Assembly (NCBI GenBank): GCA_047967505.1
Contig: CM106538.1
DNA: 64,000 nt
Strand: one strand, 5' to 3'
Origin: Dipteris shenzhenensis
Taxonomy: Eukaryota
Shown here: positions 22,520 to 54,700 of the stretch, piece after piece
Layout of the letters: every line of letters starts with the position of its first letter
Position numbering within the stretch: the first letter of the stretch is position 1
The notes under the pieces: generated by a model
The model's database searches: none
Told to the model about the DNA's origin: nothing
The model's input: only the letters and a program-made list of their open reading frames with translations
Program-made: the position numbers and the translations under genes

Positions 22520-22871
22520 TGAGAAAACATGTGTGCCTCAAGACCTATGGAGCACTCTAAGGTGGATGGAACCTGTGTGGAAACATGATGAAGAGAGTGC
22601 TCATGACATGTACCTCAAGTCAATTAGGTTCCAAGATAGATTAGCTTGGACTCATTTCTCTACTCAACAATACATGATAGGCCTCTTATATAGAGAGTGC
22701 CCTTGGAATAGTCAACACTTGTGGGATCCTCTGATCCACATCTCTTCTTGTGGATATCCTTGATCCACATCTCCACATCATGTAGTCCACATCTTAGGGT
22801 GGCTACTTTAATACATTCCTATACCATACCTTAGCCTTTAATCTATGTGCTCATGGCACCATATCTCAACA
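22520..22871 (-). repeat. 3' LTR of the young element
   Basis: 351/352 identical to 24980-25331; adjacent to the PPT. Confidence 0.95.
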
Positions 22872-24979: not shown

Positions 24980-25331
24980 TGAGAAAACATGTGTGCCTCA
25001 GGACCTATGGAGCACTCTAAGGTGGATGGAACCTGTGTGGAAACATGATGAAGAGAGTGCTCATGACATGTACCTCAAGTCAATTAGGTTCCAAGATAGA
25101 TTAGCTTGGACTCATTTCTCTACTCAACAATACATGATAGGCCTCTTATATAGAGAGTGCCCTTGGAATAGTCAACACTTGTGGGATCCTCTGATCCACA
25201 TCTCTTCTTGTGGATATCCTTGATCCACATCTCCACATCATGTAGTCCACATCTTAGGGTGGCTACTTTAATACATTCCTATACCATACCTTAGCCTTTA
25301 ATCTATGTGCTCATGGCACCATATCTCAACA
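24980..25331 (-). repeat. 5' LTR of the young element
   Basis: 351/352 identical to 22520-22871; adjacent to the PBS. Confidence 0.95.
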
Positions 25332-33130: not shown

Positions 33131-34039
33131 ATACCCTTGTGCTTGCTAGCTTTCCCCATTCTCTACTGGTAGTTTTAGAGACAAAGCAAGTAGCTGACCA
33201 AAGGGGTCGGTCAACAAGTCATAGCTTCCAATGCCTTGTCCTAAAGGAAAGTCTGACTCGCTATTTCTCCTTCTAGATGCCTTCTTTTTCTTACTACAGT
33301 GTTCCTCTTCCTAATGTCCCTCATCTAGTTCCTCCTCACTTCCTTCTTCTACTTTTGCTTTACCACACCCTCGTTTAGCCATCATTACCTCCCTTCCATC
33401 GTTACTGGAAATGTTTTTCTCACAAAGCCAAACTATTATTCATACCTCGAGCATTTATTTTTTTCACTGTACAAGAACTCGGAACTTTACAAAGAACTAG
33501 AAATTGAACAAGAACTTGAAACTATACAAAGAATAGTGCCTTGGTTATTTTTTCTTATACAGTAACTTTTGCAAGCAAGTAACACTGTAGATGTTAACAG
33601 AAAAAGAAAGTCTTGTTGTTTGTCAGTGAATGGTTCGCAAATTTTCTTGTTCTTGAGATTTCTCAACAGAATGCAACTTCATTTCTCATAAAGAAAGTCC
33701 ACTCCTTCATCAATTTGTGTCAAAGTAAGAAGCCACGGTTCCTGCACGATCACATTAACAATTTCTCTGTCCGAAGTTCATATTTGTTTATGGATCTGTG
33801 CAATGTGTATAGGATCAACTTCTTTCTTGCATCGTTCACAAAACAAGATTTCTGTGCTATTTTGACTAACGATGTTGTGATGTTGCATTGGGCACAAGTA
33901 TTAAAGTATGGTGCCCCAGTGTTTTTTAAATTGAATTCCCCAATGACCTATTGAAACATCCATATAAGAAGTTGTAGCATAACCTTGAAGTTATGGACAT
34001 ATGTGTTAGACATAAGGAAGATGTTGTAAGAGGTATAAA

Positions 34040-35400
34040 ATTAACATAACTTTTTTATTGAACTTTTTGCTAATTTATGAAACGTAGCTACCTCTACTAA
34101 TTTCTTAACATCTTCTTCATATGTAACAGGAACTACAAAAGAGTATGTAAACAATAATTTCCTTGTTGTTGAATTGTCGTTTGTGAGCCCTAGATTTTTC
34201 ACCACATATGCTGCTACATGACCGTTAAACAATTCTTCTAGCATGTTGTTTTTGACATCTTCAAAGTCATCCCAAAAAGCAAGCTATAAAATAAAGTGAA
34301 CGAACAATTTGAATAAACTGAACTCATGCACTAAATGTGTTAGTGATTTTTACCATATATATTCACTAGCTTCTGTGATTAATAAAATGCAATGTAGTTT
34401 AGTTACCGTTGTAACATCCTCAAAATTTGTCCCATTAGCAACTTTTAGGTAATGTTGTTTAGCATATTGTCCTTCAACATAGCCTACATCTGCAAGTACG
34501 GTGAATTGAACAGCTCTGTTGCGCTGATGTGAACCTTATGGTTCGCATATATATGCCACTATGGTAGTTGTTTCCTTTATTGCCATTTAGGAAGAGCCGG
34601 AAATAGTCAGCTCTAGTGCTCATACTCCATCCAACCAAGCCAACAAAAACATCGCTCATTTCTTGTGAGAAATGAACCATCATTTTTTTGGAAGACAAGT
34701 TGTTATGCAAAACACCTTTGTTGTCTATATATTTGACAGTCTCAACTAAACCGTTAATAATGTCAAATATAAGGCATTTGAAATGTTCCAAAGTGCCCAC
34801 CTCTTTTGGTATGTCTAAAAAATCTTTAGGTACATACCTGCAAGCGTTTGTGTTCATTAGATATAGCCACCTATCCAAGTGGCTACCATTCTAGTATTTG
34901 TAAATGACCATTGGCTCATTTTCATCCCTAACCAACCCTATTGAGCTGATGATGCCTGGATGAGAAATACACAAACATGTAGCTTCTAGCAATGCATGCA
35001 TTTTCTTATTAATTTAATCATTTGTTTCTTACAAGCACTTTGAAGCGAACACATCATCCTTGAACCTTTCCTCTGAAACCCTAACCTTGCTGATCTGTGT
35101 AAATTTACCAATTCCTATATGTGCTTGTGGCAAGAAAATAATTTGCTCGCGATGAAGCAATTTGACGAAAGGTGCTTCGGGTAGCATTGCTATGGATACA
35201 AACATTGTGACCCTGTTGGATATCCATTTGATCTTTTGTGCAACTACCTTTACCTTTATATAGTTGCTCAATTAAAGCAATCTTGCTTTGAAAATGAGGA
35301 TCACTAGAAAGCTGACGATCTACTAATTGTATAGATACATTAACTTGCCCGATTATCCTCAAGCATTCTCCTCGCAAATATCCGTTTGTTAATAGCCAAG
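34040..35400 (-). pseudogene. Atypical protein kinase pseudogene, probably multi-exon
   Basis: One reading frame with stops gives kinase subdomains in order: IGIGKFTQI (I), VFASK (II), LLEA (III), HPGII (IV), Y*NGSHLDRW (V), VLHNNLSSKKMMVHF (VIb) and VGLVGWSM (VII). A probable intron lies at about 34285-34406. Confidence 0.72.
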
Positions 35401-35809
35401 TTTGACTCTCAAACTTTGGCCATTAGCAACATAGTTTTCTAAATGCAATGTCTACTAGTTGTTCCACGAAAGGAGGGACGTTCTTACTATTCACAAAAGC
35501 ATTCCTTAGCTGCTCTTAATGCATATTAGCTAGTGTTAGAACCACACACTATGAATAGTATCGAAATCCAATCCTTTTCTCTTTTCTCATGAATTTGCCA
35601 TGAATTGAAACATTGTTATGCATGAATTTTTTTTAGAAAATGATAAAATCAATACTAAAGAAATGTAAGCAAAATTTGAATGTGAAAACATATTTTTATC
35701 AATATGCATAGGCATAATATGGAAACAACATACATATTGGTTAGTAACAGGTTCATAAAACAGTGTACATGTACATGTACATGTAAATAGAACCAGTCCT
35801 ACACTGTCT

Positions 35810-36800
35810 AGAGTATTCCATTAAGGAATAGAGTATAGATACTAAGCATAACAACTCTTAGAATGCGCACACTATTCCATTGTAGAAATAGAATGTACAC
35901 ACTAAGTTACATCAATATGTTAAACGAAGATACAAAAAAGCTTGAAATGCAGACCTTGTAGCTCGTGTTCACACTATTCCACTAAAGAATAGAATGCGGA
36001 CACTAAACATAATAACTCTTACAATGGTCACACTATTCCATTACGAAATAGAATGCATACACCAAGGTAAGTAAATATGTTCAATGAAAATACATTGAAG
36101 CCTAAAACATGCACATTGCATTTTATATTGCACATATAATAGACACGGCGGTAAAATCAACCTTAGAATGTCCACACTATTCCATTACGAAATAGAATGT
36201 GCACTCTAAGCATTGTAGAATATAATGGGCACACTACATCAAGATGTTAAACGAAAGTACAATAAAGCTTGAAATATGCATATTGCATTTTGAAAAACAT
36301 ATACAGTAGACATATAAGTACAACCAATATCACAATATTCACACTATTTCATTATAAAACAAAATATATGCAGCAAGCATAATGAGACTTAGAATGTCTA
36401 CACTATTCCATTATAGAATAGAATAGGCACACTAAATATATAAAAGAATAATAACATCACACATTGAAAATGTATTTTGAACATATATATTGCATGTACA
36501 CAAAGGTAAAATGAATCTTAGAATGCCCACACTATTCCATTACGAAATAGAATGTGCACACTAAGCATAGTGAGTCTTACAATGTCCACACTATTTCATT
36601 GTAGAATAGAATGGACACACTACACTACATCAAGATGTTAATCAAAAGCACAGTAAAGTATGAAGTATATATATTGAATTTTGAAAGACATATACAATAG
36701 ACATGTAGAACAAAATGTTAATCGAAAGCACAGTAAAGTATGAAGTATATATATTGAATTTTGAAAGACATATATAGTAGACATGTAGAACAAAATAGGT
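35810..36800. repeat. AT-rich higher-order tandem array with about 9 copies of a quasi-palindromic core CACACTATTCCATT...GAATAGAATG, ending in an 80-bp near-perfect duplication (36635-36794)
   Basis: Cores at about 35813, 35868, 35970, 36029, 36173, 36340, 36400, 36528 and 36587, mostly as pairs about 55-60 bp apart. Confidence 0.85.
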
Positions 36801-38549
36801 ACACTAAGCCATATTAATATATAAAAGAAAAATAACAAACATTGAAAATGTAAAGGGAAAAAAATACCCATACAACAAGCATTGGTCACAAAATGTTGAT
36901 GGGTTATTCTCTATTTTCTCAACACAATTGTATAGTTGGACTCTAAACGCAATACCAAATGCATAGCAACGTTGTGTATAGGAGTTTGATCTCTAATTAG
37001 AAAACCTTCAATAGTGATAACTACACTACTTCAGCATTTGCTTTTAACCAAGAATCACTAGGACGGTGCAGTATTTGTACTACAACAAACTTATCAAGGG
37101 AGCCTCACATTGTGGGTTGTAATACCATGCTTGTGTACGCAACTATTTGTACGCAACTATTGTAGAACTATACCGAGCAAGCCAACAGCAATTATAAGTG
37201 GGTGGGCAATGTGAGGCCATGTCTAATGATATTGTCTATGTTGTGTTGACAACTGAGAGACCATGCCTAATGATGTTGTTTATGTTATGCCAACAACACA
37301 ACAAACCTAAAGGAAAAGAGAGGCAAACCTACATTGACCTAGAAAACAAAAAGGCTTGAAAAACATGGTAGAACTCGAAATCAAAACTCAACCCTACACC
37401 CGCATTGATCGATGCAAGGGCAAGCCATAATGTTGCTAGTCTCTACCCCCTATGTCACCTAGCTCCTCTCCTACCTTTGGTGTAGAACTTTATTCTTCTT
37501 CTTCTATCCATTTTGCGCCGCACACATTATTCTCCACTTGAATTTTTCATCATAGATTCTCTTGTTGAGCTTGATTGAGACATGATTCTGAGCTCAATTC
37601 TCTCGTACATTTCGGTCGATGTTGCCTTAATCGTTTACTATAGCACGCTGAGTTGGTCATCTTATGGTCAAATTGTCCTTTCACCACCTCTAGTAACTCG
37701 GGTAACATATGCTCAACCCATGTATGCGTGAGAACCCACCAAGTAGCTAGCCTAATACCTATTTACACAGCTTTCACCATCAATTAAATTGCGAGCCGCC
37801 TTTGTATAGCCACATTATCGTAATTATACTATCTACTCTCCTCTAGGATGCTAGCAGCCACAAACAAATCTGTCAGTTTTCGTCAAAGTAATCACCAAGG
37901 CAATGGTTCTTTACACGCTGCCAGCTACCGTCGTTGGATCATGTGTAGCCTACATCTTGGTATTACCTATAGTCCACGAACAAAATCATTTGCTACTAAG
38001 AGAACTTAATTCTCTCATCAAGTTCGACTGACACACAGCCAACGCTATCAGCCTGCGAATAAAATTTTCTACGGGCCAATGCAGTCATCTCTTTGAAGTG
38101 CCAAATGCAAGATGACGAGATTAGACACGGACACATGGTTTGTGCCACTGGCTTCCCAAGACCATATCCCCGAGACTACTTCCTATGCTCGAACCAACTA
38201 TCGAACTGAGCCTTCTTTACCAACTTGGCCACCTCATAGAACTGAACCTTCGAGGCAAAAGTTTCCTTGCAAAATGTGTGCAATAGATATGGATAAAGAA
38301 GCGCTCACACTGTGGACGTACTCGGCTCGGGATACCTACCTGTTGGTTTCTGCAACTACAAAGCAGGGCAAAATCGATTTGCTCATTTTTTGCCTACCCT
38401 GGTAAGTGGGTAGGTCATAGTAACGATTCAAAGCCTAAGAATGGAAAGTCACGAACCGCATTATTTTATTGAAGGTTTATTAGGTGGCGTTAAGGTATTG
38501 GCGGGGGGCGAAATACCAAGCCATGTGTCTATGAGAAGTGAGTGACCCT

Positions 38550-39680
38550 TTTGGAGAGCGTCCACTGTGGGCAATTGACTATCAGTCCATTTTGGGGAAC
38601 CGACGCTTGGATTGTGCGTGCGTGGAGGCGAGTAGAGGTATCCATCCTCTCCATTTCTAGTTGCGCGTTCCGTTCAATCTTCCATTCTGTGGCGTGTGTC
38701 TTCAACCTTGCGAATGTCTGGAGCGCAGCGAGTTGTGGAGTCTATGAATACCGGGAGCGAAACGTTTGGTAGATGTACCTAAACTACTCGTAACGTTCTT
38801 CGTTCTCTCAAACTAGCGAATAGCAAAGTTGGTCTTTCGATGAACTCTAGAATTCCGCTCGAATAGACTCTGTCTGCCTGTGTATACCATCATTGTTCAA
38901 GGCGATGCGACGTTCTCTTTTCATAAACTCTATCTGCATGTGTACACCATAATTGTTAAAGGCGATGCGACGTTCTCTTTTCATGTGTGCGCTAATATTG
39001 AAGTTAAAATTACGACGATAGCAAAAACAGAGACGACTGAGGAACTTCTATTTCCTTGTCTCTCTGGCTCTCTTGTGAGGCTTCCATTTCCTTTTCTCTC
39101 TGCCTCTTTTGTGAGGCTTCCATTAGGGCTCTCTGTTGAGCCTGGATGAGAGAATTGGTCAACTCCAAGAGCTGCTCGTTTCGCGTTCTATTGACTCTCA
39201 ATTGAGGCATGTCCACTTCTAGCAATCCCAGAATTGACAACACTCGATCTTTGTCGTGACCTGGTAGAGACTATCTTGGTTAGAATTCATTTGGTAGAAT
39301 TAGCATAGAGAGGAAAACAGAGCATATCGTGGGGAAAACGAAAAACTCACCTTCAGAACAATGGCGCCTATCTGAGATCTCCTGCAGTACTATGCCTATA
39401 AATTGAACAAGGGGATAACGCGTCATCTCTAACTGATGTTGAGAAACAGTGAAATCTATCATATACAGTTGTGACCCGTCCAGTGGTTTTGAGCAATTTC
39501 CACACTGTTCTGGAAATCCTTTCAACGTGTCCGAGATTAGCCCTTTGGAGCAGGAGTATGCGTACACCCCGGACTCGTACCATGAGGAGTAATAATAAAT
39601 CTCAGGCGTAACATGATAAGGAAGCATACCCTTTCTTTTCTGTCGGCATAAAAGAAGCAGACGCATATATATGTCATCTC
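38550..39680 (-). pseudogene. Unknown, probably spliced and decayed gene with a CxxC motif (possible Helitron accessory gene)
   Basis: Protein-like segments YSCSKG...CGNCSKPLDG...(SEG then GTGAG donor), LLEVDMPQLRVNRTRNEQLLELTNSL and QTESIRAEF...QTFARLKTHATEWKIERNAQLE, with stops. No family recognised. Confidence 0.35.
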
Positions 39681-40379
39681 TAAGGCGGCTCCCGTATAGT
39701 TTACTATCGCCACAAGCAGGCTCAGTTCCACGAATAAATTAGTGATTCGCAATTCTCAATTCAAATTCCATTGAGACGCTCTGTTTTTTGTTCGCTTGTC
39801 GAGAGCTGAAGAAATATGACACGAACGGAGGGTCCTGCTACGCTGATGATGGCGATTCATCCGAGGTTCACAAGGCTAGCGTGGGCACCGAAGTAGATAC
39901 AAGTACTAACGAGTATGTGCTCCATCGCAATAGCAGTTCGTTTCGTTGAAGTCACTCTTCCTAACCTTGATCATTGCGAAGCAGTAATACTAGTCAATTG
40001 CGCTGCTACATGCATGATTACTTCTTCTTTGCCATGCACTACCATAGATGTGCGAGTGGACGTGCTGAACGTGAAGAGTGTTTCTGAGAAGGGTGCTGCT
40101 TTCAACAAATTGGTTGGCGTGAAGAAGAAGAAGTCATCTCGCTGAGGAGAGGCTTCGAGGCTGTGGCTGAGCAGGCATACACGAGGGTAAGGTGTAGCAT
40201 TTTGTTTGGTTTCCTTATAGAAAAAAATTTGAATGATCGCAACGAGCCTTTTTTTTGCAGTTCGAAAGCTACTTAAGCACGAGCACATAAAAGGCACGAT
40301 AAAGTGCGCTATGAATATTTATATTAAGAAGAAACACCCACAACTATGTTTGACTCAAGTGTCATCGTGTAGAGACCGA

Positions 40380-42230
40380 ACGAGGGTTAACTCTGTCATT
40401 AAGGATACCATCTTTTGTATCATCATTGTGCATATTTCCAACCAAAAAAATAAACGAGGGAGTTTACTTGTCATAAAACACATTGCCAAAGTCAGCCTGC
40501 TTCCCTTCCATCCATGTTTTGAATTCCTGCTCGTTAATAATATTCAAGCATTAAATCCCTCCTTCGTTTGCAATCCACTTTTTCTAATGGCACCCAACGA
40601 AAATTATATATTATAAAGGTTTCAATCACTGCGAATGTTTGTTGTCAAATCGCCACATTCAAGGGAAATTTTCATGTGCACCGCTCACCCATAAAAGACC
40701 ATTTTCCAGATGTATGTAATCTACTAAAACTATGCGTTCTTGACAATTCCAAATGCAAGGAATGATAGCACATACACTAGAAATAATGGGATAATATGTT
40801 TGGCAACTATTAGTCTTTTAGCAAGAGATAGCTTCTTAGATGCCCACTTACTAAACATTCCCTCATATTTTCAAAAGCAGTAGTCAGGTATGTCTTTGAA
40901 AAAGATTCCCAGCCATAAAAGCGAGAGTGGATCCAGACGAGCTTGGCATTAGAAGGAGACCACATCCAAGAGGTCACCGACTATGGACGAGGCGTTTTCC
41001 TCATCTAGCTAAGCTCCCCCGACACTACCTCGACACTTGTGGAGCAAAGCCCCATCCTCCTCGGTCCACATCTTGTTTACCTCTTTCCTTGGTATCATGG
41101 GTTCACAGTGGAGGACATGGATAAGACACACCATGTTCCACGTTTCCTGGTTACACTTCGCTTCGTGCACAGTAGTTTGCTCCTTCACGATTGCGTTGCC
41201 TACAACTATGACCAAGAGAAAGGGGCTTCAGGGGGTTGCCAAGGCGCTATTATAAAGGGGGGTCGACCAAGAAAAATTTCATACCTTGACACAGGTGCAC
41301 GGGTTACATGTGATGCTCATAATTAGTGCTGGTTATGTTGCATTGCCTATGGAATTCAAATTCGGTGGCTAAGGTTTTAATTCTTCATCTGATTGTTTTT
41401 ATGGCTTCTATAAAGGGAATCTTTTTTAAAGACATACCTGACTATTGCTTTTTAAAATATGAGGGAATGTTTAGTAAGTGGGCATCTAAGAAACTACCTC
41501 TTGCTAAAAGACTAATAGTCGCCAAACATACTATGCAGTTATTTCTAGTGTATGTGCTATCATTCCTTCCTTTCACAGGGAGTGCACTGATTGCCACTGA
41601 TATAGTAGTGGCCCCTGCCACTGGAGGAGGTGACTGCCACTGATATAGTAGTGGCCCCTGCCGCTGTAGGGGCTGATCGCCACTGATATAGTAGTGTGGC
41701 CCCTCCTGCTGGAGGAGGTGGCTCGTGCTGTTCCTCCTTTGGGGCCACTTGGTCAACCTCTCTTTGCAATTGGCCCTCTGCCTGTGATGCTTGCAGGCCT
41801 GTTTGCTTGGGTTCTTTTTAACTTGGGTCGAGTCCCCTTCTGAGGGGGTAACCCAAGGGGTCTTAGACTCTTGTTGCTCCTGCCTGAGAGGACGTTGGCT
41901 CGGACCTACTGACTGCGTCTACTGTACAGAGGGGGAGGGGAGGCGCATGAGGGAGGCCACGGGGGCAATCTCTGGCGAGGTGACCCATCTGTCTGCACCG
42001 AAGACACTACATGGTAACCCAGAAATCTCCACCCTCTGGCGAAGTGTGCCACCTTCAAGGGTCTCGAGAAGGATCAACTCTGGGATGGAGGGACTCTGGG
42101 CTCTCAACCACCAGTCTGATCCTAGTGACTCCATAATCTGCTAAAACTGAGGCGGCCGACTCTGGCAGGGACTTGAGCACTGTGCTAAATGCCCCACCAA
42201 TGGAAGGGAGGATGGCTCGATACTCCTTGG
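40380..42230. mobile_element. Rearranged LINE fragments: ORF2 pieces as an inverted pair (40757-40920 minus, 41397-41568 plus), DUF4283-like ORF1 piece (40925-41170 plus), ORF1 CCHC piece (41770-42230 minus)
   Basis: SKWASKKL(S/P)LAKRLIVAKH on both strands; YGRGVFLI...PILLGPHLVYLFPWYHGF; QCLRCRQMGHLARDCP on minus at about 41960-42007. Confidence 0.75.
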
Positions 42231-42239
42231 AAAACAAGC

Positions 42240-43681
42240 TAGTGTCACAAGATGCTCCCCCCAGCATCCATGCATCATGCAAAGCCCTCGTTTCCAATGT
42301 CGCCAAGCCATGCAATTCGAACTCACTGCCCATAGTGAAGGTCAACGCCCTTTCTGAGTACATTGATTACCGATTCGCATTTGAGGGAAGAGTGCTATCG
42401 AAGTATGGCATGTTCAAGGCCGAGGACGCTCCCTATGCAACATATATGCGAGTTGATCTGACCGATCGCGACTACTAGCAAATAGTAACCCTTCATGTTC
42501 CACACATATATGTGCCCCAACTGAGGGATGTTCTAGAGGTAGATGGCTTCTATAGAATAGAGGGCCCAGCCATTGCTGCAAAGTCACCAGGTGAAGGTGG
42601 GACATCCTTGATCTCCCTACGTGTTGATGCAACCACCACTGTAATTAAAGGCAAGCCTTTTGATGGTCTCCATCCTTCATTCTGGACACCACAATCAGTT
42701 CATGTGCCATGGGTTTTCCAACAAATGCAAAGGTTCCCTTCACAACTGTAATGAAGACAATTGCTTTCGTGGTGGTGAAGGTTGACCTTGAGGGCCCTCT
42801 ATCTGACCAGATTATTATTGCAGATGGACCAAACCCAAAAGATCGCGCAACAGTACGTCTTCAATTGTCTATGAATCCACCCCCCCCCTTTTTTTGCGAT
42901 TAATTGCTAACACGCTTTTTCCACGTTTACACAATTGTCATTCGTTTCAATGATCAGAGGCCAAATTTAACGCGCATCATCCAAGAGTTCAACGAGGAAT
43001 CTATTGTCATGTACATCACACAAACTATTTCATACATGTGTGGCTATATTCGACTTTACCATTCTAGCAGATCTGCCAAAAGGAAGGCTTCGATACACCT
43101 TACAAGAAGCATTTGCACATCAAGTATCTAACCTTGGCTACGATCAGCAGGTGAAACTGTTCTGAGTTTGATTGCATGCATCTATTCTCATGTATGTATA
43201 TGCACAACTATAGTCTCTAACTGTGGTCCATACATGTGGACAAGTCAATGGAGTTTTGCAATTCACTGAGCTGAATGGACCTCTCGTCGAATTCCAGTGT
43301 GGTAAGTGCTCAAGCTCCCGCGTAAGCCGTGACCCAGCCAAACCATTCTCCTACTCATGCGCGAGCACACAGGACGTCTTCACACTTGCCTTGCTGAAGG
43401 GCCGAATTGTGCTATACGATGGTTTCGAGGTTGATGTAAAGCTTCATGGCTCCACTGCAGAGGACGTTTCAGGCCTACACCAATCATTCATGGAGTACCA
43501 TAGCCAAAGCATGGTCGCGACACAAAATTTGCTAATGGACCATCATCCTTCAAGCCAATTCACAATCAACAGCTCCGAGTTCGTCACTGCATTTGTGCGA
43601 GACGCATATGCAGTCTCGGTACTCGACATGTCCTTGCTATACATAAACATGCGCTCAACCTTTGTACATAGTTATTGCTGA
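42240..43681 (+). pseudogene. RPA70-like multi-OB-fold ssDNA-binding protein gene, decayed and spliced; Helitron-associated
   Basis: N-terminal part FEGRVLSKY...YMRVDLTD...LEVDGFYRIEG is OB-fold-like; C-terminal part FQCGKCSSSRV...YSCAS...GRIVLYDG..VDVKLHGSTAEDVSGL resembles the RPA1 DBD-C zinc ribbon; a GTACGT donor lies at about 42853. Judged by pattern only. Confidence 0.55.
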
Positions 43682-44799
43682 TCTGGTACAAGGTTGTCGT
43701 TGGGGAGGAAATAAAATGTCTCGTGCCACATGATTGTGCCGTTACTTTCAAAACTTCACCGTACTGTGTCTTTTTTTTTGCAAGACACAACCCCCCCCTT
43801 ACCACCTCCTTGGCGTAAAAGCAAAACCCCTATTTTTATGTTGCGTATAAATCCGAGCACACCAACAAGCTATATATGCTTCCAACAATAATATGTTTCT
43901 CTTGTATTTCCACACCATGCACCCAGAATTCGCTTAAATTTTTAGCTAGGCCCATGGATAGTGTTTGCAAGGAAACGATACATGGTTGCATCGAGACAAC
44001 CTCCGACAATATCGTATGCGATGGAAACCGTATGGTTTGCAAGCGAAAAACAACAAACATACTGGACTGTGTCGTAGCGCTTAATGGAAAACATTCATAC
44101 AAATATTTACTGGGCATCTTACACGGTCACATCTCCACAACAACTTGCAAAGCCACATCCCCTTAGTGCCAGCCGAGGCCTACACCACAGTACGAGGAAA
44201 TTGTTGCGCCAACGAAGGATGAGGTCATGTACCTTTTGCAAGGTTCCTCCACATCCAGGTCTCTTGTCCACGATTTCTTGCTACGCTTGGTTGAGGCGAT
44301 TAGTACGTCTTTCACTCTTGTCTTGCGTGACAGTGAATCAGTCATTCATCGGGCTGCAATCGATAGTGGACATGCAACCGCAAATCACAACATACTAATG
44401 AATGATTGGGCTTGCTCCCCTTTCGTCACCCCATGGTATGTGGACTGGGGGAAAAGGGCCTACATGCACTGGTGCACAGAAGATGAGCTGCGCTTGTAAA
44501 CACTTGTGAGTAGCCTGGCTCAATTGCCTGCAAGCAAGGTTGCTTTGCTGTTCAATGAAGCAACAGAGCAACTGCCAATACGCCATCTCTAGCGTTTGCA
44601 GCAAGATCTATAAGATCAAGTCTACATGCGCCAACAATTTTATCCCTGTAATGGTTTCGAGATTGTGCAACTCCCATGCAAGGTGCTCCCTCCAACTAGA
44701 GTTATAGGTGGGAGACCAACGTACCACAGATCTTGAACTTGGACATCCGAGGAGGAAATGCAAAGAAGCTACCAGAAGTGCCCAACATACAACACCAAC

Positions 44800-47700
44800 A
44801 TACAAGACACACCTAGGTATCCTTGCGCAAGCTATAAGACCCTCAAATTTGCTGCAAATTTGAAGAAGCTCCCTGTCTAGTTCATGGGTGTTTCGATATT
44901 GCTTGAGGATGCACCTGTCGAACTAACATGCACAAAACCATACATTTGCACCCTATGCTTGTTGCAGGAATTGTGAAAGACAAAACACCAACTTTTTATT
45001 TGAAAAACATGCCAATCCAACCTCCAGCACTACATGTATCTACTCTCAATAGGGTTGAGCAAAGACTCGTGGCTATAAGGCTGCCATTTGCGCAGATTCG
45101 TGAGCTGTCATATGAGGGCCAATATGGATTGCATGGGAGTGTCGTCAACGTGTTCGCAGACACTGACAGGGCACAGCAAGTACTACCGAGGTTCCTAGCA
45201 GACAACACGACAATCTTGGTTGCGATTAAGTGCAAGTTGGAATACACGGACAACTACATGAGTGGTGTCGTGCGGCCTACAAAAACCATGCAAGCAATGC
45301 ATAAACTTATACAGACACCGCTATACAGAGAGAGTGGAGTAAAGATAAATCATGTTTGGATAGAGCACATAGAGAGCATGCAGAGCGACGCAAAGGCTTC
45401 TGAAAGCACAACCACCATGGGAGAACAAACCTGCCAAGAGAACAATGTCGAGACAAACACGCTCGTGATGGCATATACACAGCACAATAGGTAGTTGACT
45501 TCCAGGATAAACCAATAGTCGTTGCACCATCAAAAGGGTTCTCTCCACCACTGAGCGTTTTTAAAGACAAGCATTACAAGGAGATGGCGTTCCCTAGATG
45601 TTTTATAACCACATGCGTTCTTACAAACTCCCTGAGCGTACAAGCTACCAAAGGATCGTGAAGTGGGAGTTGACAAGCCAGGACAGACGTTTTGCAACCT
45701 GCGTAGATAATATTTTCTTCAAGACAATGAAAGTTCTTGTACGTCACGTTCTATCGTCCACATGAGTTTGAAAACGAGAAGGGCAACTTAGAGGGAGAAC
45801 TATACAAGCTAGGGACACGCTCACTCACACGAACATAGAAAAATTGCTCCATTTAAACATTGGGTACTGTGACTTTACATGCCTTCGCACTTCGGCAAAT
45901 TATAAGCATCGCTTAAAGAAAAACTTATTCGGCATGCTGCGCCATCTTGGCCTTCATCGCTTTATCGGCTATGGAACGATTGTGGATCCCCCTCCTGCAA
46001 TGCCTTGCTGACTTGCAACAGCTTGTCCTTCAAGACTTGACTAAGAATGGCATACACAACATGATACGTAACGACCCCATCAATATAGCTAGGTACCACA
46101 TTCACAAATTCAAGGCCCTCAAGAATTTACTCAAGAAAGACCACTCCATCCTAGGACCATTCATTGACTTCTTATTAACAGAGTTCCAGAATAGAGATAG
46201 CCAACATGACCACCGGCTTCTATGGTATGACAACGCCCCAATTATTGGTCATGCTAAGAATGAGGTCATAGCATACATTGACAAATATATCACAACAGAT
46301 CTCTCTTTGTTTGACCTCCCAAAGAAAGAAATACAAACGCACAAGCATACAAAGACATGCAAGCAACGGGGTAAGGCTTGCAGGTTCGATTTCCCGAGGC
46401 CACCCATGATTGAAACAATGATTTTGTACCCTCATCCAGAGGACAGTGGAATGCAGGCAGCAAAAGCTAACATGAAGAAGATTACCAACCTAATGCTGGA
46501 GGAGGGCTCACTACAACTAGGTTTCGATATGTTCTTACAGAAACTTGGATTCTCTTACGATGACTACGTCAATGCGCTAAGGAGTAAACTCTACCAGCCA
46601 ACAATTCTACTCAAGTGGCAGTCGAAGGATAACTTCACAAACAATTTCAACCCAACAATATCCAAATTTTGGTACAGTGTGAACGCTGATATACAATTTG
46701 TCTTGAACCCCCATGCACAGTGGCATCTTATTACATATCATACATGATGAAGATGGACAGGGAAACCACGGAGGCAGTGAGGAGCGCTCTCAAGGCAAGC
46801 ATGGCCGACGACTCACCAACGAACGAGCGCATAAGAAATGTCGGGAACGCAATACTCAACACACAACACATAAGCTCACAACAAGCTGCGTACCTTTGCT
46901 TGTTGCTCCCTCTGACAAGTGCCACCAAAGAATTCTACTACATTAACACAATCCCTCCCAAGGAGCGGACACTCCTACTTAAGAGACGCACCCAGCTTCA
47001 AGCAATTGATCCTTCTAGCACAAACATTTTCTTCGATGATGTTATCAAAAAGTATGTGCACCATGCAAAGAGGCACTTGGACATTTGCCTCGCTACTTAC
47101 GCCAATAAACGCAGCGTACCAACGACCCAAAAACAACCAAGGAAAAGAGGAAAAATAATACGCTTCAACAACTACAATAAGACCAAGATCCGAAGAATCA
47201 TTACAAAGAATTGTGCCTGTTATACCTTCCTTTCCTTCACAGCGAGCACACAATATCATATGAATTTCCAACATGGCATGACATGTACCACTCGAATGCT
47301 GAGGTCATTGATGCTCAATTTAACAAAACCTCAATGTGCAGAGCGTTGCACAACAGGCTTGAGCCATCAATCTCTACAACCAACAACGAATCTACAAACC
47401 ACAGCTACGCGAGCGAGGAAAATTTTGACTTGGGATTGGAAATGAACATGCACGAGGCAAACACAACACGACGCGACCAGCAACAACCCTCACAGGCTTT
47501 AATGCCTAACCACCAATTCTATGGACTATTGAGAAAGCTTAACAATGAGCAGCGAGCAATCATCAACAACATCATGCTCAAAAAGATTAGCGAACCTAGT
47601 CAACAATTCCACCTCCTGCTCTCTCGAGAGGCAAGTACAAGTAAAACCTTCACACTCATGCTCTTAGTGCAAGCACAGCTCCGCTTCTACTCGCACAAAG

Positions 47701-48827
47701 ACACATCAAATGTAGACTTGCCCAAGGCAATCTTGGTCGCATACACTGGAAGAGCCACTCACGCTATTGGTGGGATGACTATACATGGAGCTTTCCACCT
47801 TCCACTACTTTCATCGGCCTACACGTCGCTTTCAGCAGAGAAACTACAATAGCTGTCAGAAGCATTCAAGGAAGTACAGCTACTGGTCATTGACAAAATT
47901 TCCCTGGTCGGCATCAATACCTTCATTGCCGCAAACTCCCGCACGAGAGAAATCAAGCACAACCACGACCAACCTTTTGGGGGCGTCAATGTTCTCCTAT
48001 GTGGAGACCTGTACCATGCAAGCCCAACCAAGGACTCCTGGATTTTCTATAGCAAACATCCTCCTTCGAACATGCTAGGTTCCTTTTGGACAAGCAAACT
48101 TTTTTACTACGAGCTACGACAGCCCGTGCAGCAAAAAGGCCCCCATTTCCTTGCATTGCTCAACAAAATCAGGATAGGATGCCAAACAAATGCCGACCTT
48201 GACCTCTTAAACAATGAACATTTCAAAAACCCACCAGTTAAGCACAACATTCCTCAGCTCTTCTACACAAACGCCGCAAAGGACGACCACAACGAAAATT
48301 TTTTCAACACCCTGCAAACAGAACCACGCGTGCTACTTACAAAGGACATTTGTCACAAGACATGCAGAGTCACGGAGGTTTGGGTGTTGCAACTTACTTT
48401 AGACCAAATCTACAACTTATCCAACAGACTCAAGTCCAGGTTGACGGGTACCAAATCCTTCTTGCAATGTTCAAAAGTCATGAAAACAAAAGAACAGGAA
48501 TACTTCACACGTACAAGTCACCACAAACAAAATTGCCAACGCTGCTGCAAAACATGCACAACCTCATGCAACTACTCCCGCAGTCTGCACTACATTTGCA
48601 CTCGGTGACTTCAACATTGACATCACCCGCCCTCCACAATGATGGCACAACTGCAAGGCTTCATGGTCCACCACGGCATGCGCCTGCTCAATAAAGGACC
48701 TACGACAATCTCCGGATCCGGAATAGACCATATCAGGTGCAACAACATAAAAATCAGCACACACACGGGACGGACATTCGCATATTGGTCTAACCACATG
48801 CTACTCCATGCAGAGACATCAATTTGA
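44800..48827 (+). mobile_element. Helitron2/Helentron-type RepHel gene remnant: DUF6570-like region, HUH Rep, PIF1 helicase and C-terminal AP (EEP) endonuclease; many stops and frameshifts, internal deletion
   Basis: EQRLVAIRLPFAQIREL..GQYGLHGSVVNV; RNDPINIARY; EFQNRDSQHDHRLLW (HUH); QTHKHTKTC..CRFDFP; NADIQFVL..ASYYISYMMK (YxxxY); LNNEQ, decayed Walker A REASTSKT, AYTGRATHAIGGMTIH, VIDKISLVG, PFGGVNVLLCGDLY; EEP motifs YKSPQ, LGDFNID, PTTISGSGIDHI and YWSNH. Confidence 0.9.
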
Positions 48828-50829
48828 ATCAAAGCGTTTTCCCCAAATCCATATCTATACCAAAGATCACAGGCAGGTGGAGGATGCATAGCCTTGCATC
48901 CATAAATAGAATGAATTAATCACCGAGGAGGAAATTTTTCTAGGGAGTGGAAAAATTAAGGAAAAAGGGGAAACGAAAGATGAGGGGGAGAGGGGTATAG
49001 GGGCCTCCTGACATTGATTGCTAAATATTACAACTCCCTATTACGAAAATCAGTTGGCCCACCGACGACATCAAACCTACTTTCATGTCTTGAGTTAGTA
49101 TTGCGGGCCAATTTGTCCCGCAATTCCTCAATCTCAACAGGGCAAGCCCACTGAAAAAATTCACCTTGTTTAAAGGTCAATTGGAATCGGGAAGCCCAAC
49201 AATTGAAAAACCTAGGTCAAATTGCTACATCGATGTAAATTTGACATCCTCTTTCAAGGAGAAGGGGAAGAATCAGGACAGGGAATTGAGAGATTGTAAT
49301 TCTGAGGTAGAGCTTTCCTCAAAAGTGATGGATGAAAAGCTAGGGCATTTTTCCTTGCAATCCTCGAAAGGAGCAACTGAAGAATAGAATAAAATGTAGA
49401 TGGGTAGTGTGCGCCGTTGAATTGTTCCAAGAAGTGCCAGAGCTCAACTTGCACAAAGAGGAAGGATGGTGAGATTTCTCCAAGCAGGGATTCAAGAAAT
49501 ATGGAGCATAGGAGTCATCATGTGAAGCAACCATCGTCAAGAAAACAATATCCCGAGAGAACGAAAGAGAAAGAGCTTTGACCACCCTTCATGGCTATGG
49601 CAGATCAAACCCCAGGAGTAGAACCACCTCGCTCACAAGAGTGACCTCTTGACGATCATGCTTCTCGACACCAACCTTCAGACGATCAACCAACTGCGCC
49701 GAATGGGTACAAAATTCGGAGCTCAAATCCATCCCCTTGCTGATACACAAGCATTTCGAGTTTACAACGCATGTTGTTCGTCACATTACATGTCTTCTCT
49801 GTTGTTTAATGGACGTAAGGCCATGTTCTATTTCCTTCACAAAACGAGCCTTTAACCATAGCTCAAAAGTGCTTCCTACCCGAAAGAAGTATTTTTTTTT
49901 CTGTAGGTGTTCCAGGGGTCTCCTTTTGAGGCCTACTATTTGATTGATTTGAAAGGTGTATCATGAGTTAACATTCTGCTTGCTTTTGATGAAGAAAAGC
50001 ATAGGCTGTTGCAAAGCAAAGGCAGTCAGGCAAGGCTACTGATTCAGAGAGACAACACAAGAAACACTGAGTTTGAGGGATAAATTTGACTTAGCATCTC
50101 AAGAGGCCGGGCGACGGACCGTGGTTTCAAAAGAAGGCTGAAAATGCAGATTGATGACTTGTTTTCGAAGAACGAAAGTTCTAAAATATCTGAAGGAAAA
50201 TAAGACACTATAATTTTTATACGAGGCGGAACACAGCTTTAAGATTTCTTCATCGTTTGAAATCTTTGCAGCAGCTAAGAGTGTATGGATCACGGCATTT
50301 CTTTGTTTTGTTGCACTATGACATGCTAATTTACCTAGACTATAAGCACAACCATTTGGTAGGGCAAAATGAATATCTAGAGCTGAAGCATTGAAGAAAG
50401 CATGCACTGACCGTCATATTCATAATATTTGCAATAGCCGAGGTAGAATTACAACTGCAGGCTTCTAATGGAGCAATTCGGGAAGAAAGGGCGACCTTGG
50501 AGTTTGTTCGGAGACAGCTAGAACAAGCGCAAACAGATCTCTTCTCAAATCGAACTCCTTGCTCCCAAAGTTTGCGAACGAAATCTATCTACGCGACTCC
50601 AAAGAACAATGACCACAACAAAACACGAATTCACAAGGCAGACCAACATAGCATCAAAAGAACACACGAAGGAACGAAAATAGCAACAAATGGGCAGGAG
50701 AAGCACGAGCAAGTTGACAGATAGACAAGTTGAGTCAGCAACATGTAATAAAACTAGCCAGCAATGTGTGATAAAACTAATAGAGGGACAGTTTCTGAAA
50801 AAGTGTCAAAAGAGCACTCCCTGCAAGGC

Positions 50830-51500
50830 AGTGCTAAACAAAGAAAAAAGTATAATAATACAAGACATTATGTTGGAAAAAAGAAAAGATAGCAATAACC
50901 AATACATTATTCTTTTGTCCAAAAATGCAAGAACAAGCAAGACTTACACTCTACATGTGATAGTACAAGCGTCATGACGACATTACTCCCATAAAGCCAA
51001 CACAAACGTTGAACTCCCCCGAGTACTTCTACTAGCATACACAAGTAAAGCAACTTTCAACATTGGTGGAACAACAATTCACTCTACATTGCACCTACCT
51101 CTTCTCATGTCCAACTACACATGCCTTTCAACAACGGTCACATTGCAATATGTTTCAATGCTATATCAAAACCTAGAATTAATAGTTCTCGATGAAATTT
51201 AACTGATTGGATTAAACACCTTCATTGTCATTGACATGCGCATGAGAGAAATTAGGCATAACCACTCAAAACCATATGGAGGGATCGATGTGCTCTTGTG
51301 TGGAGATCTTTGCCAAGGAAGCCCGACAAAGGATAGCTGGATTTTCTCTCAAAAAAACACATCCTTTGCAATAATGCCATCCATATGGCGAGAAAACGTC
51401 TTGTACTATGAATTGATTCAACCAATGAGGCAGAACACCATACCGTACATTGACATGATCAATAAAATAAGATTAGGATAGCAAACAAAAGTAGACCTCC
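50830..51500 (+). mobile_element. Second, diverged PIF1-type helicase fragment of a related Helitron2 family
   Basis: LNKEK..IIQDIML, RTSKTYTL, LAYTSKATFNIGGTTIHSTLHLP, VLDEI*LIG, KPYGGIDVLLCGDLCQ and YYELIQPMRQ; collinear with 47535-48200. Confidence 0.85.
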
Positions 51501-51769: not shown

Positions 51770-54700
51770 CATGGTTGTTAAGACACTCGTGTCTTATGGT
51801 AAGACACTTAAGACACTTAAGACACGTGTCTTACCTTAAGACACGTTTAGACACGCTCCAAATTTTTTTTATAAAATTAAAAAAACCCTACGTTTTGGAC
51901 AATGGAACCTTAGACTTTGCATTTTCGTTTCGCCGTACAAGCCGTCCGGTTCCGTACGCTGTTTCGCCTCTCCCGCTGCAGCAAACTTCACGTACGCTGA
52001 CGATTTGCCGTACAAACTTCACGTACGTACCGTACGGACTCGAGTCTCGACGTACACACGTGACACCCCGTACAAATCCGCCGTACATCGTACGGATCCG
52101 CCGTACACTGTACGGATCCGCCGTACACTGTACGGATTTACTGTAGTCTCAGGTCTGTACGTTACCTTCTGCACCTGCTGGTTTCGGTGACGACCATCGA
52201 CGTTGGAGGCTGGAGCTCAGCCTGCCTTCAGGTTCACATTGTACACACTGCATCGTTTTCTTCAGCCTTCTTTTAGCTTGTTATATAGTGCTGGCTCCAC
52301 TCTGCATCTTGCTTTCTCCTTTCCCAAAAAATTGGGCCAATTATGGGCTGATTCCTGAATCCTGAAATCCCTAAGAAAGTTGGCCCTCTTCTGGGTTTGT
52401 TTCATATAAGAGCCTGCTAGAATAACAGTAAATTTAAAGGGGGCAAAGTATGGGCTGAAAGCCCTAATTAATTTGGCCTCCTTAGGGCTGCATAGATGAT
52501 AGCACCTTATGCATTAGACTTGTCACTGCTTAATGCTTGAGCCTTCAAGCTTCTATTGCAGCTTGCTTCAAGCTTGGCATGTGCATTTCTCAACACAATT
52601 AGTCTATAGATTGCAGTTCACTTGCTTGTTCTACTTCTCCCAAAATTTATATTGAATTATGCTCGTGTGCATGCCAACATGACAGGTCGCAGGTCATAGC
52701 AGCAGAGAATTACAGCATAGCAACAGAGAATTACAGCATAGCAGGCTGCAGCAGAGATTTACCATGCCTAAACCTCCAAATCCACTTTGGGGGATCCATA
52801 CCACTATGATTAACCCCGCTGTGGCAACGGGGTCAGGAAACAAAGAGTGGAAATGCAATTATTGTGGTGAGCCTTTTGTGAGCTCAGCGACACGTCTTAT
52901 TCTCCATGTGTCTGGACTTGGTGGTAGGGGAATTGGTGGATGTACTTCTGTTCCTTTTGAGATTGCGCAGAAAGTTATCAGAGATCATCCAAAACTTTGT
53001 GGTGGACCTAGTACCATGCCTGCTGCCTTGCAAGATGAGGATTTGTTGGGGCCTGAGTCTCACACTATCAACCTTGATGATGCTATGGATAGTGACTCTA
53101 GTGCTATTGGTTCCTCTCATGCAAAGAAGAGGGCCAGGAAAGAGGGCATTGCTTTTGCTACATCCTCACAACCATCCACCACTATGGCTACTTCGAAAAA
53201 GCACCAGGGGACTTTATCAGGTGCATTGTCCACACAGTCTTGGCAAAAAGAGCGGCAGCATTTGGCAGATATTGAAATTGGGAGGACTGTGATTGAATGC
53301 AATTTTGCTTTCAATGTCCTACAAACACCACAGTGGAAGAGGATGATCAAGGCAGTGGCAGCTGTGGGAGCTACAGATACATGGACAGGTGTGACATATG
53401 GTGCGATGAGGACATCTGTGTTGGAGGAGGAGATAGGCAGAATTAACAAAGCTCTTGATCCTATCAAGGAGGGATGGAAGAAATTTGGTTGCAGCATTCT
53501 GTCTGATGGTTGGAGTGATGTTAGGAGGAGGGGCATCATTAATATATTGGTATCCTCATGCCTTGGTACGTACTTTTTGAAAGCTGTTGATACAGGTCGA
53601 GGAGGTGCTAGCACTACAGGTGAAGTCATTTTTCAGCATATCCGAGCAGCTATCATTGAGATAGGGCCTGAGAATGTGGTCCAAGTTGTTACAGACAATG
53701 CAAGTAATTGTGTGAGGATGGGAGAGCTTGTGGAGGCAGAGTTTCCTTCCATTGTATGGACTCCTTGTGCTTCACATTGCCTAGACCTTCTCATGGAGGA
53801 CATCGGTCGGCTCCCTTGGATTGCTAGTGTGATGCAGACTGCTAGTACCATTGCAGCCTTCTTTAAGAAGAAGCCCAAGGCCTTGGCCATATTCAGGGAG
53901 CATAGCAACTTGGAAATTGTCCGGCCATCGAAGACACGCTTTGCATACATGCACATTGTTTTGGAGCGCCTTCTTGCAGTGCATGCAGCTCTTCGACAGA
54001 CAGTGGTGTCTCGGATGTGGTTAGAGTGGCCTGACTCTACCAGGGCAGAGAGCATGACGGTACAGAGGATGTGCTTGGATCACTCACTTTGGACTGACAT
54101 GGAGTCCATAGTGAAAGCTCTCCATCCTTTATTCGCTGTCTTGCGGGTGACTGATATGGAGGGAAGTACTCTTGGCTTGGTCCATCATTTCATGGAGCAG
54201 TTGCGTGTTTCGCTGAGTACATGTAGCTCCCTCGCACCTGAGAGGTAAGGTTGGTCTATGTCCATTATATTAATAAGTAATGAATCATCACTTATCATAA
54301 ATCCATTATCAGTGACAAGTGTTTATTATAATTTACAAATTATGTTGATATGTAGATTGGAAGAAATAAGGTCTCTAGTGGATACGAGATGGCAGTTCAT
54401 GTGTAGGCCCATCCATGGACTTGCAACACTTTTGCATCCACTGTTTAAGTCAGCTGATTTATTCAATAAGCCAGAGTTATTGGCGGATAGAGATGCCTAC
54501 ATAGGGAGGGTTTTTTCAGAGGATGAGCAATTGGAGCTGGACTTGGAGCTTTCTCAGTATCAGAATAGTGTGGGTGCTTCCTTCTCTAGACCCACGTCTA
54601 GAAGGAAAGAGATTTGTGTGAAGCCAATTGAGTGGTGGGAGACATATGGCTACTCCACTCCTCGAGTGCGGAAGTTGGCTCTCCGGATTTTATCTCAGGT

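Follow-up and report, generated by a model that had tools for sequence, protein, structure and literature searches.

Probable core of a dead HLE2-group Helitron-like element with an RPA70-like gene in a presumed fern genome

The DNA analyzed here (the window, 64,000 nucleotides) carries, in succession on its plus strand, an RPA70-like single-strand-DNA-binding gene, the DUF6570, Rep, and PIF1 parts of a RepHel protein, and an endonuclease-like piece. A kinase pseudogene, a palindromic array, two open frames, and an inverted-repeat element lie to the left of these genes. Table 1 lists the features with their coordinates.

Table 1. Features of the locus, from left to right in the window
Feature	Position	Strand	Remarks
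Protein-kinase pseudogene, neighbor	34477..35271	-	Intronless; one frame, 3 in-frame stops
Irregular array of short palindrome-bearing units, neighbor	35767..36852	+	Self-similarity
152-codon open frame with CxxC	39283..39738	-	No family, no fold
Small ORF	39817-40145	+	Open frame, one internal stop
Separate inverted-repeat element	40752..41573		822 bp; 159-nt arms, 92% complementary, 504 nt between; upstream of RPA-like gene
43-bp tandem repeat, ×3	41588-41720		After the inverted-repeat element
RPA70-like single-strand-DNA-binding gene	42137..43678	+	Frameshifted, one in-frame TAG; N-terminal OB fold, probable C-terminal OB with zinc-ribbon motif
DUF6570 domain of RepHel protein (HLE2 marker)	44907..45494	+	Pfam PF20209, E 9.5e-11, 42.7 bits versus cut-off 24.3
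Rep (HUH endonuclease) domain	45917..46752	+	Helitron_like_N and tblastn
PIF1-type helicase, N-terminal RecA part only	47181..48296	+	Pfam PIF1 E 1.4e-4 and 3.7e-7 (Pfam span to 48608)
Probable C-terminal half of endonuclease/exonuclease/phosphatase (AP endonuclease-like) domain	48374..48814	+	Three frames
Two candidate right terminal repeats	48847..48876		Both compatible with chance
7-bp-stem hairpin, possible 3' stem-loop of the element	48882..48901	+	At chance level

A phmmer search with the RPA70-like gene retrieved 43 homologues at E ≤ 1e-3, the best at 7.4e-29; 16 of them were looked up, of which 15 are named, all 15 being Adiantum proteins distributed over many contigs. A family HMM built with the window row left out matches five collinear ORF pieces of the gene (E from 6e-20 to 1.4e-3), which confirms the plus-strand RPA70-like gene reported in the preliminary description of this DNA. 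Pfam RPA families were detected neither in the window pieces nor in any of the 32 homologues scanned, among which a weak tRNA_anti-codon OB match was seen in one and a Helitron domain in only one, and no solved chain in the PDB matched the gene at the sequence level, even when the family profile was used. The core of the protein was predicted by AF2 with a pLDDT of about 90 to 98, and Foldseek placed RPA70 DBD-A/B and Teb1 OB-A/B on top of the matches to the predicted OB fold (1jmc_A at 6.2e-5, Teb1 at 6e-5 to 1e-4). The OB fold is thereby predicted to be of the DBD-A/B type, in keeping with the RPA70-like identity first proposed. In the C-terminal domain, the family alignment displays the pattern CxxC-x13-15-CxxC, of which the window copy retains three of the four Cys residues; we liken this four-cysteine ribbon to that of RPA70 DBD-C.

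In the RepHel reading, the DUF6570 piece aligns with residues 449-545 of P0001, a 1,736-aa DUF6570/Rep/PIF1 protein, while the Helitron_like_N match at 45917-46747 (E 3.7e-4, 21.2 bits) is below the curated Pfam cut-off of 28.9. The Rep region is also matched in tblastn by P0001 residues 737-904, with 35% identity at E 4.6e-16, and residues 531-652 of a second protein, P0013, align with the window at 45598-45963 with 46% identity. The HUH-type motif reads SQHDHRLLW (46199-46225) and the two-tyrosine motif ASYYISYMMK (46723-46752), the latter in a shifted frame. Residues 1132-1524 of P0001 align with 47184-48296 at E 1.1e-26. DUF6570, Helitron_like_N, and PIF1 thus stand in the correct order on one strand, collinear with P0001. 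The nearest proteins, P0001 and P0060, combine DUF6570 with OTU or UCH. In the HELIANO survey, DUF6570 is found almost exclusively in HLE2 and serves as the marker which splits HLE2 from canonical Helitrons (PMC11417382).

The RPA-like gene and the RepHel reading are connected by P0013, a protein of Adiantum nelumboides with a Helitron_like_N match in Pfam, which aligns with the window both at 42350-42664 (OB) and at 45434-45963 (Rep N terminus, 46% identity). Since this OB domain and this Rep N terminus are joined in P0013, the gene order recurs in another fern. We therefore read the plus strand from about 42.1 to 48.9 kb as the core of a single, now dead, Helitron-like element that belongs to the HLE2 group (Helentron/Helitron2) and lies in a land-plant genome, probably that of a fern; we give this reading a probability of roughly 0.7. 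This putative assignment to HLE2 is made by domain content, the DUF6570 marker, and the position of the RPA gene. With DUF6570 above the Pfam threshold and with the OB domain and Rep N terminus of P0013, the Helitron2/Helentron-type element with an RPA-like gene that had been proposed at this locus is supported.

This copy is unable to move. Its RPA-like gene is frameshifted, and its RepHel reading, broken up over three frames into five or more pieces, has lost about 210 C-terminal helicase residues by comparison with P0001; the endonuclease-like domain lacks its N-terminal half. Both losses fit a single internal deletion near 48.3 kb. The endonuclease-like piece meets the helicase at the deletion junction and contains GDFN (48604-48615), IDHI (48723-48734), and SNH (48789-48797), a triple with a single occurrence in the window and none in 300 resampled windows, and a stop codon follows nine codons past SNH. 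In the Atlas, a language-model lead with a score of 0.94 goes to a cluster whose name is [quoted passage not shown] The piece matched nothing in Pfam or among PDB sequences, and no profile method detects an AP endonuclease. The domain was also absent from all seven matches among the retrieved RepHel relatives and from the three RepHel/PIF1 proteins (P0060, P0001, and P0053) among the five proteins scanned. Of the Rep-PIF1-AP endonuclease gene previously suggested on the plus strand, then, Rep and PIF1 are borne out, whereas the AP endonuclease, on which Pfam and the PDB are silent, is recognizable by its motifs and the language-model lead as a probable C-terminal half.

Alternatively, the element could be a Helitron2-type HLE2 without endonuclease, the piece at 48374-48814 being left over from a non-LTR retrotransposon that inserted into the helicase and removed its C terminus. 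This would account for the abrupt end of the helicase at residue 1524 of 1,736 in P0001, right where the endonuclease-like frames start, and for the retrieved RepHel relatives without such a domain. However, a truncated LINE insertion usually retains its 3' part and not the endonuclease, and no reverse-transcriptase signal is present in the 1.9 kb of plus strand downstream of the piece or anywhere in 33.6-52 kb: Pfam detected no RVT family in the ORFs of at least 50 aa in 33.6-52 kb, nor in the read-through frames of 48.2-50.7 kb. The stop nine codons beyond the last motif is, moreover, as expected of a C-terminal domain. As for known elements, the HELIANO survey describes EN as mainly confined to one HLE2 subgroup, yet this EN-bearing subgroup b takes in land-plant hosts (PMC11417382). 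We regard an insertion of this kind as possible but do not favor it over an HLE2 element with its own endonuclease.

The statement that only LINE debris interrupts the run of genes is likewise not borne out: searches of 33.6-52 kb found neither a reverse transcriptase nor an endonuclease family, and the visible interruption is the 822-bp inverted-repeat element. This element is a separate insertion, at which no target-site duplication was seen. At least one module internal to the proposed run has its own 159-nt inverted arms, a finding of the sort that the preliminary description had listed as refuting a single element.

The candidate termini of the HLE2 element do not stand out from chance. 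The hairpin noted in the preliminary description does exist, with a 7-bp stem, but is ordinary: its fold has a z score of -0.01, 87 of 200 shuffles fold equally well, and there are 127 such stems within the window, 22 of them with at least 4 G+C. Canonical Helitrons (HLE1) have CTRR within about 11 nt of their 3' hairpin and lack DUF6570; here no CTRR occurs within 20 nt after position 48901 and DUF6570 is present, which sets the copy apart from them. HLE2s insert between T and T, share their ends among many copies, and carry short terminal inverted repeats (12-16 nt) with a stem-loop behind the right one. The candidate right repeats in the window belong to two inverted pairs, both at chance level, 48847-48858 with 38283-38294 (12/12 matches) and 48861-48876 with 41778-41793 (14/16 matches).

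Farther left, a spliced CxxC gene on the minus strand and a small ORF on the plus strand had been described. The open frames are there, while neither their status as genes nor the splicing finds support, and the proposed second exon of the CxxC gene overlaps a 36-bp tandem repeat. Pfam reports no family for the CxxC ORF, hhalign against the RPA family gave a probability of 0.2, and its AF2 model, computed without an alignment, has a pLDDT of 38. Both ORFs would be genes of the element if this were about 10.6 kb long and began near 38.28 kb, with the perfect 12-nt inverted pair ATAGATATGGAT / ATCCATATCTAT as its ends. The right arm of this pair lies 24 nt ahead of the hairpin, as in HLE2 ends, where the stem-loop is described as following the right repeat (PMC11417382), a five-T run lies 33 nt past the hairpin, and GC content is uniform from 38 kb on. 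Yet a 12-mer inverted pair of the same kind was found in 55 of 365 control zones, the left arm shows no T-run, neither ORF has a family, a fold, or a detected relative, and the rival pair at 41778-41793 and 48861-48876 fits equally. We consider this extension unlikely.

The atypical kinase on the minus strand reported earlier is a pseudogene. When it was read through its stops as X, Pfam gave PK_Tyr_Ser-Thr (E 1.1e-8; 35.2 bits, cut-off 23.1) and Pkinase (E 3.4e-7); the best PDB chains were 2qkw_B/3hgk_A, "Protein kinase," at E 0.005. The top Atlas score was 0.93, and the ten best family-bearing matches all share the family or clan of the best match, those shown being PF00069 Pkinase. The translation has HNN at the catalytic-loop position and VGW at the DFG position, where a catalytic kinase would have HRD and DFG; hence a domain above cut-off is present, but not the intact frame with HRD/DFG of an active kinase. 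The palindromic repeat array was likewise recovered, the motif CACACTATTCCATT occurring eight times at 35868-36600 against 0.66 expected, a count reached by none of 100 shuffles.

Because GC content steps up at about 37.0 kb, from 0.29-0.39 over 33.5-37.0 kb to 0.41-0.55 further right (0.42-0.55 over 38-50 kb), we kept the kinase and the array out of the element, and they are most likely unrelated neighbors; the GC step alone would also be compatible with captured host DNA. The preliminary description had instead joined all modules in a single element of about 15 kb (about 33.6-48.9 kb), in which RPA and RepHel-EN would be accompanied by four pieces of cargo: the kinase, the array, the CxxC gene, and the small ORF. 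It is true that a Gypsy fragment and the hairpin flank the whole set and that no recognizable host gene lies among them, that captured domains are reported in large number from HLE2s and proto-Helentrons with several ORFs exist (PMC11417382, PMC4067079), and that tandem-repeat arrays are reported in Helentron derivatives (PMC4067079, PMC7492417). The GC-poor block is nevertheless set apart in composition, no left terminus and no termini enclosing the kinase and the array were found, and the kinase is an intronless pseudogene of host type (RLK/Pelle-like) on the opposite strand; in the HELIANO supplementary tables consulted, "Pkinase" has 0 occurrences (PMC11417382). The inverted-repeat insertion with its own long arms weighs on the same side, and an 18-nt inverted pair (33456-33473 / 36849-36866, 16/18), which is T-rich and not significant, exactly brackets the GC-poor block and hints that this is its own unit. 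The 15-kb element therefore appears improbable to us. We are just as skeptical of the broader proposition that ferns have their own Helentron-type (HLE2) lineage and a fern-specific RPA70-like family without a Pfam model, of which this copy would be a 10- to 15-kb composite with a pseudokinase, a palindromic satellite-like array, and two ORFs of unknown nature as cargo.

Judging by its family, an intact element of the kind to which we assign the 42.1-48.9 kb core would move by rolling-circle transposition. The HUH Rep domain would nick the element end and become covalently attached through a tyrosine, the fused PIF1 helicase would unwind 5' to 3', and the RPA70-like protein of the element would presumably coat the displaced single strand. 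In the Helentron subgroup, the C-terminal AP-type endonuclease may nick a T-rich target.

Among known systems, cellular RPA70 (PDB 1jmc) and its paralogue Teb1 provide, with the DBD-A/B OB fold, the best structural match of the predicted fold, although the RPA-like gene has no sequence-level match to solved chains and no Pfam RPA family. Canonical plant Helitrons (HLE1) share the rolling-circle Rep-PIF1 transposase with an RPA70-like gene; they have neither DUF6570 nor EN, of which our element has the first and perhaps the second, and it is downstream of RepHel that their RPA genes are enriched (PMC11417382). Helentrons of mites, mosquitoes, and Drosophila likewise have a Rep/helicase/endonuclease protein, the endonuclease being probable in our copy, and a separate RPA ORF; their 3' end has a subterminal repeat followed by a short palindrome, for both of which we have chance-level candidates. 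Their 12- to 15-bp subterminal repeats are verified and common to many nonautonomous copies (PMC4067079), whereas here there is one decayed copy with half of the endonuclease missing and an RPA-like family whose members known to date are all Adiantum-type sequences. The combination of RPA with AP endonuclease is not new: HLE2s may carry EN, RPA, and OTU (HELIANO, PMC11417382), and Helentrons have been drawn with an RPA ORF (Thomas et al. 2014, PMC4067079). What is new is the fern host only, table S10 of the HELIANO survey listing no HLE in the sole fern sampled, Ceratopteris (0/1; PMC11417382). HLE2 ends, with their terminal repeats and stem-loop, and insertion between T and T are not demonstrable in this single copy, but it shares with HLE2s DUF6570 N-terminal to Rep, a possible C-terminal EN, and an RPA-like gene that precedes RepHel in the same orientation; RPA ahead of a DUF6570 RepHel, with or without endonuclease, is the layout already published for HLE2 (PMC11417382).

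According to our analysis, the window harbors a dead element of the HLE2 type (the Helentron/Helitron2 group of Helitron-like elements) with its own RPA70-like gene, lying amid most likely unrelated debris, and this element is probably of the endonuclease-bearing kind. The analysis is based on this single copy and on its protein relatives found in public databases. The window is land-plant DNA; it includes a PP2C gene and a PPR gene carrying an E motif, besides pol fragments of the Gypsy/Copia type. A pair of 352-bp direct repeats (22520-22871 and 24980-25331), 99.7% identical and separated by 2.1 kb, resembles the LTRs of a small LTR element of recent origin. The 33.6- to 52-kb region was scanned with Pfam on stop-to-stop frames (21 frames, then 115 frames of at least 50 aa), the coverage of 33.6 to 48.2 kb consisting of ORFs of at least 50 aa plus the kinase frame, while read-through frames were scanned further to the right. 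DUF6570, Helitron_like_N, PIF1 (in two places), and DUF659 were the only families recognized in this ORF scan.

Features of the window, with the evidence for each where available
Feature	Position	Strand	Evidence
PP2C phosphatase exons, host-type gene	13308-14853	-	
Kinase frame	34477-35271	-	
Repeat array (extent of self-similarity)	35767-36852		
CxxC ORF	39283-39738	-	
Small ORF	39817-40145	+	
RPA70-like gene	42137-43678	+	Family HMM, E 6e-20 to 1.4e-3
DUF6570	44907-45494	+	Pfam E 9.5e-11, 42.7 bits
Helitron_like_N	45917-46747	+	Pfam E 3.7e-4, 21.2 bits (under the curated 28.9)
PIF1	47181-47852 and 47853-48608	+	Pfam E 1.4e-4 and 3.7e-7
EEP-like piece	48374-48814	+	
Second PIF1 fragment	50978-51481 (region 50684-51499)	+	Pfam E 2.4e-4 and 3.6e-7
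Motif cluster	51776-52140	+	
DUF659, intact 521-codon frame	52683-54245	+	E 9.9e-47
PPR protein with E motif, host-type gene	62446-63999	-	518 codons, open to the window end

The core of the element is the RepHel transposase, a fused Rep and PIF1 helicase, whose pieces lie on the plus strand in frames 0, 2, 1, 0, and 0 and are collinear with the RepHel relative P0001 (1736 aa, with OTU [weak], DUF6570, Helitron_like_N, and PIF1). Together with the Pfam matches, this bears out the Rep and PIF1 assignments of the preliminary description. The alignment to P0001 ends at its residue 1524, corresponding to window position 48296, so that the helicase lacks some 210 residues. A HUH-type motif is readable at 46199-46225 (+), and a two-tyrosine motif at 46723-46752 (+). 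A homologue search with the Rep ORF returned one match, and that with the helicase returned six generic PIF1 matches, none of which carries an endonuclease/exonuclease/phosphatase (EEP, AP endonuclease-like) domain.

An AP endonuclease had also been claimed downstream of the helicase. Three frames there resemble by eye the C-terminal half of an EEP domain, with GDFN, IDHI, and SNH and a stop codon nine codons past SNH. The pattern GDFN ... [IV]D[HY][IVLF] ... S[DN]H, modeled on the motifs of the family, occurs with plausible spacing once in the 64-kb window, both strands counted, and in 0 of 300 first-order Markov resamplings, a comparison to be read knowing that the pattern was chosen after the sequence was seen. 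The protein atlas pointed, at 0.94, to a cluster whose name is that of an endonuclease/exonuclease/phosphatase fragment and, at 0.92, to a cluster with PF03372 in 15% of its members. The motifs of the C-terminal half and the atlas lead bear the claim out only in part; Pfam at E≤10 matched neither the pieces nor their read-through frames, PDB sequence searches gave nothing relevant, and the EEP domain was found in none of the retrieved RepHel relatives. Such a domain could instead derive from a LINE; however, no reverse transcriptase follows it within 1.9 kb on the plus strand, nor is there one on the minus strand, which favors a C-terminal transposase domain. The abrupt junction between helicase and EEP-like piece fits one internal deletion.

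The RPA70-like gene upstream of the transposase was investigated using the frame 42137-42748, its single TAG read as X. Among 1.84 billion representatives searched, 43 proteins matched at E≤1e-3, 18 of them at E≤1e-10, the best reaching 7.4e-29 with 46% identity. Sixteen of the 43 were looked up; one was unnamed, and the other 15 are all annotated as "hypothetical protein," in either Adiantum nelumboides or A. capillus-veneris, and come from many different contigs. When 32 of the 43 homologues were scanned with Pfam, 29 had no family, one had an integrase fragment, and one (P0013) had Helitron_like_N; an RPA family was found in 0 of the 32, along with one weak tRNA_anti-codon OB match, and the family profile found no solved chains by sequence. 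The structural prediction, for which the window piece was aligned with 41 of the 43 matches (P0039 and P0044 of this family excluded), yielded an AlphaFold model with a core at residues 61 to 175 (block pLDDT 89 to 98). Foldseek gave 28 PDB matches for it at E≤0.001, the best being RPA70 in a repair complex, RPA70 DBD-A/B (1jmc_A, 6.2e-5), and OB-A/B of the RPA70 paralogue Teb1. The 43 homologues and this predicted fold uphold the RPA70-like gene of the preliminary description. Moreover, a family HMM built without the window row matched five collinear frames, which therefore make up a single gene, frameshifted but almost complete in length. In the family, the C-terminal domain carries a CxxC-x13-15-CxxC ribbon, of which the window copy retains CGKC...SYSC.

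The association of this gene with the transposase is not confined to the window. In P0013 (660 aa, A. nelumboides), residues 204 to 308 align to window 42350-42664 and residues 473 to 652 to window 45434-45963 (46% identity over 122 residues), so that at another fern locus, too, this OB gene immediately precedes a Rep of this kind. This linkage was seen in 1 of the 32 homologues scanned, the other predictions being short and uninformative on neighbors. Several Adiantum predictions of the family (among P0003 to P0045) fuse the RPA-like domain with unrelated pieces such as an integrase or Ig-like domains, a hint that transposon genes were mis-annotated there. The OB-fold family with its 43 relatives, for which Pfam has no model, probably belongs to transposons and not to the host's own genes.

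A second helicase fragment lies to the right. It corresponds to a protein segment that the first fragment also covers (P0001 residues 1298 to 1492) and shares 72% DNA identity with that fragment over 153 bp, which marks it as part of another copy, older or diverged; Rep, RPA-like, and EEP pieces are missing beside it. Next comes a cluster in which the motifs TAAGACAC and CCGTAC occur in both direct and inverted orientation. The palindromes at 51776-51855 were considered as a Helentron end; that reading was rejected, and they were assigned instead to the subterminal repeats of the neighboring hAT-like (DUF659) element. Together, the cluster and the DUF659 frame resemble a hAT-like element, with its subterminal repeats and a gene related to transposases, that truncates the second helicase fragment.

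The preliminary description had envisaged a single element of ~15 kb (33600..48901) closed by a hairpin. Shuffled sequence folds as well as the hairpin region (z -0.01), and the 7-bp stem is ordinary, with 127 such stems in the window, which leaves the hairpin a candidate end. The best inverted pair nearby is a perfect 12-mer (38283-38294/48847-48858), the like of which occurs in 55 of 365 control zones, and a 14/16 pair (41778-41793/48861-48876) is an equally good candidate. In view of these controls, the rival pair, and the hairpin score, the termini are candidates only.

As regards the kinase and palindromic array assigned to the left part of that element, both are real. The kinase frame is continuous save three stops and, read through, matches PK_Tyr_Ser-Thr (E 1.1e-8, 35.2 bits, profile positions 5 to 137) and Pkinase (3.4e-7). 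Its best solved chains, 2qkw_B and 3hgk_A ("Protein kinase," E 0.005), are presumably tomato Pto kinase; a 138-aa piece gave only E>0.1 against the PDB, and a word-based homologue search with the kinase piece found no relative. With HNN in the place of HRD and VGW in that of DFG, we deem it a genuine kinase pseudogene, decayed and without introns, or perhaps a pseudokinase. The array motif occurs in 8 copies versus 0.66 expected. GC content is 0.29 to 0.39 over 33.5 to 37.0 kb versus 0.41 to 0.55 over 37 to 50 kb, a step that sets kinase and array apart as a compositional block of their own. An 18-nt inverted pair (33456-33473/36849-36866; 16/18, T-rich) exactly brackets this block and may mark a separate unit or be due to chance. 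Just downstream of the kinase frame, at 33727-34283 (-), four Adiantum RPA-like proteins align collinearly by tblastn (E 0.07 to 0.9), including a CxxC stretch; a second RPA-like remnant was rejected here, as the family HMM gave only E 3.1.

The spliced CxxC gene proposed between array and RPA-like gene retains its open frame, but it lacks a family and a confident fold (AF2 without alignment, pLDDT 38), and its supposed second exon overlaps a 36-bp x2.2 tandem repeat. Neither this frame nor the small ORF has a Pfam family, a confident fold, or similarity to the RPA family, and a zinc-ribbon RPA fragment was rejected for the CxxC ORF (hhalign probability 0.2). An 822-bp unit whose inverted arms measure 159 nt (92% complementarity) is situated between these ORFs and the RPA-like gene, with no visible target duplication around it; a 43-bp repeat in three copies (41588-41720, 84% matches) directly follows it, upstream of the RPA-like gene.

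No description of HLE2 elements in ferns was found in the titles and abstract starts of the open-access papers that full-text searches listed. The HELIANO survey of 404 genomes (PMC11417382) lists Polypodiopsida as 0 of 1 for Helitron-like elements, the single fern being Ceratopteris richardii; fern genome annotations may therefore miss this class. Rolling-circle elements of the DUF6570 type (HLE2) that carry an RPA70-like gene upstream do occur in fern-type genomes, and the significance of this is mainly for annotation, with modest interest for that of fern genomes. The HELIANO paper describes DUF6570 as almost exclusive to HLE2 and used as its marker, HLE2s as possible carriers of EN (endonuclease), RPA, and OTU, RPA as found preferentially before RepHel in HLE2 and after it in HLE1, land plants as hosts within the EN-bearing subgroup b of HLE2, and HLE2 ends as 12- to 16-nt inverted repeats plus a 3' stem-loop with T-T insertion. 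Helentrons are likewise drawn with an RPA ORF by Thomas et al. 2014 (PMC4067079). The combination of RPA and AP endonuclease, earlier held to be remarkable, is, judging from these two papers, the standard layout, and the element reveals neither a new mechanism nor a new architecture.
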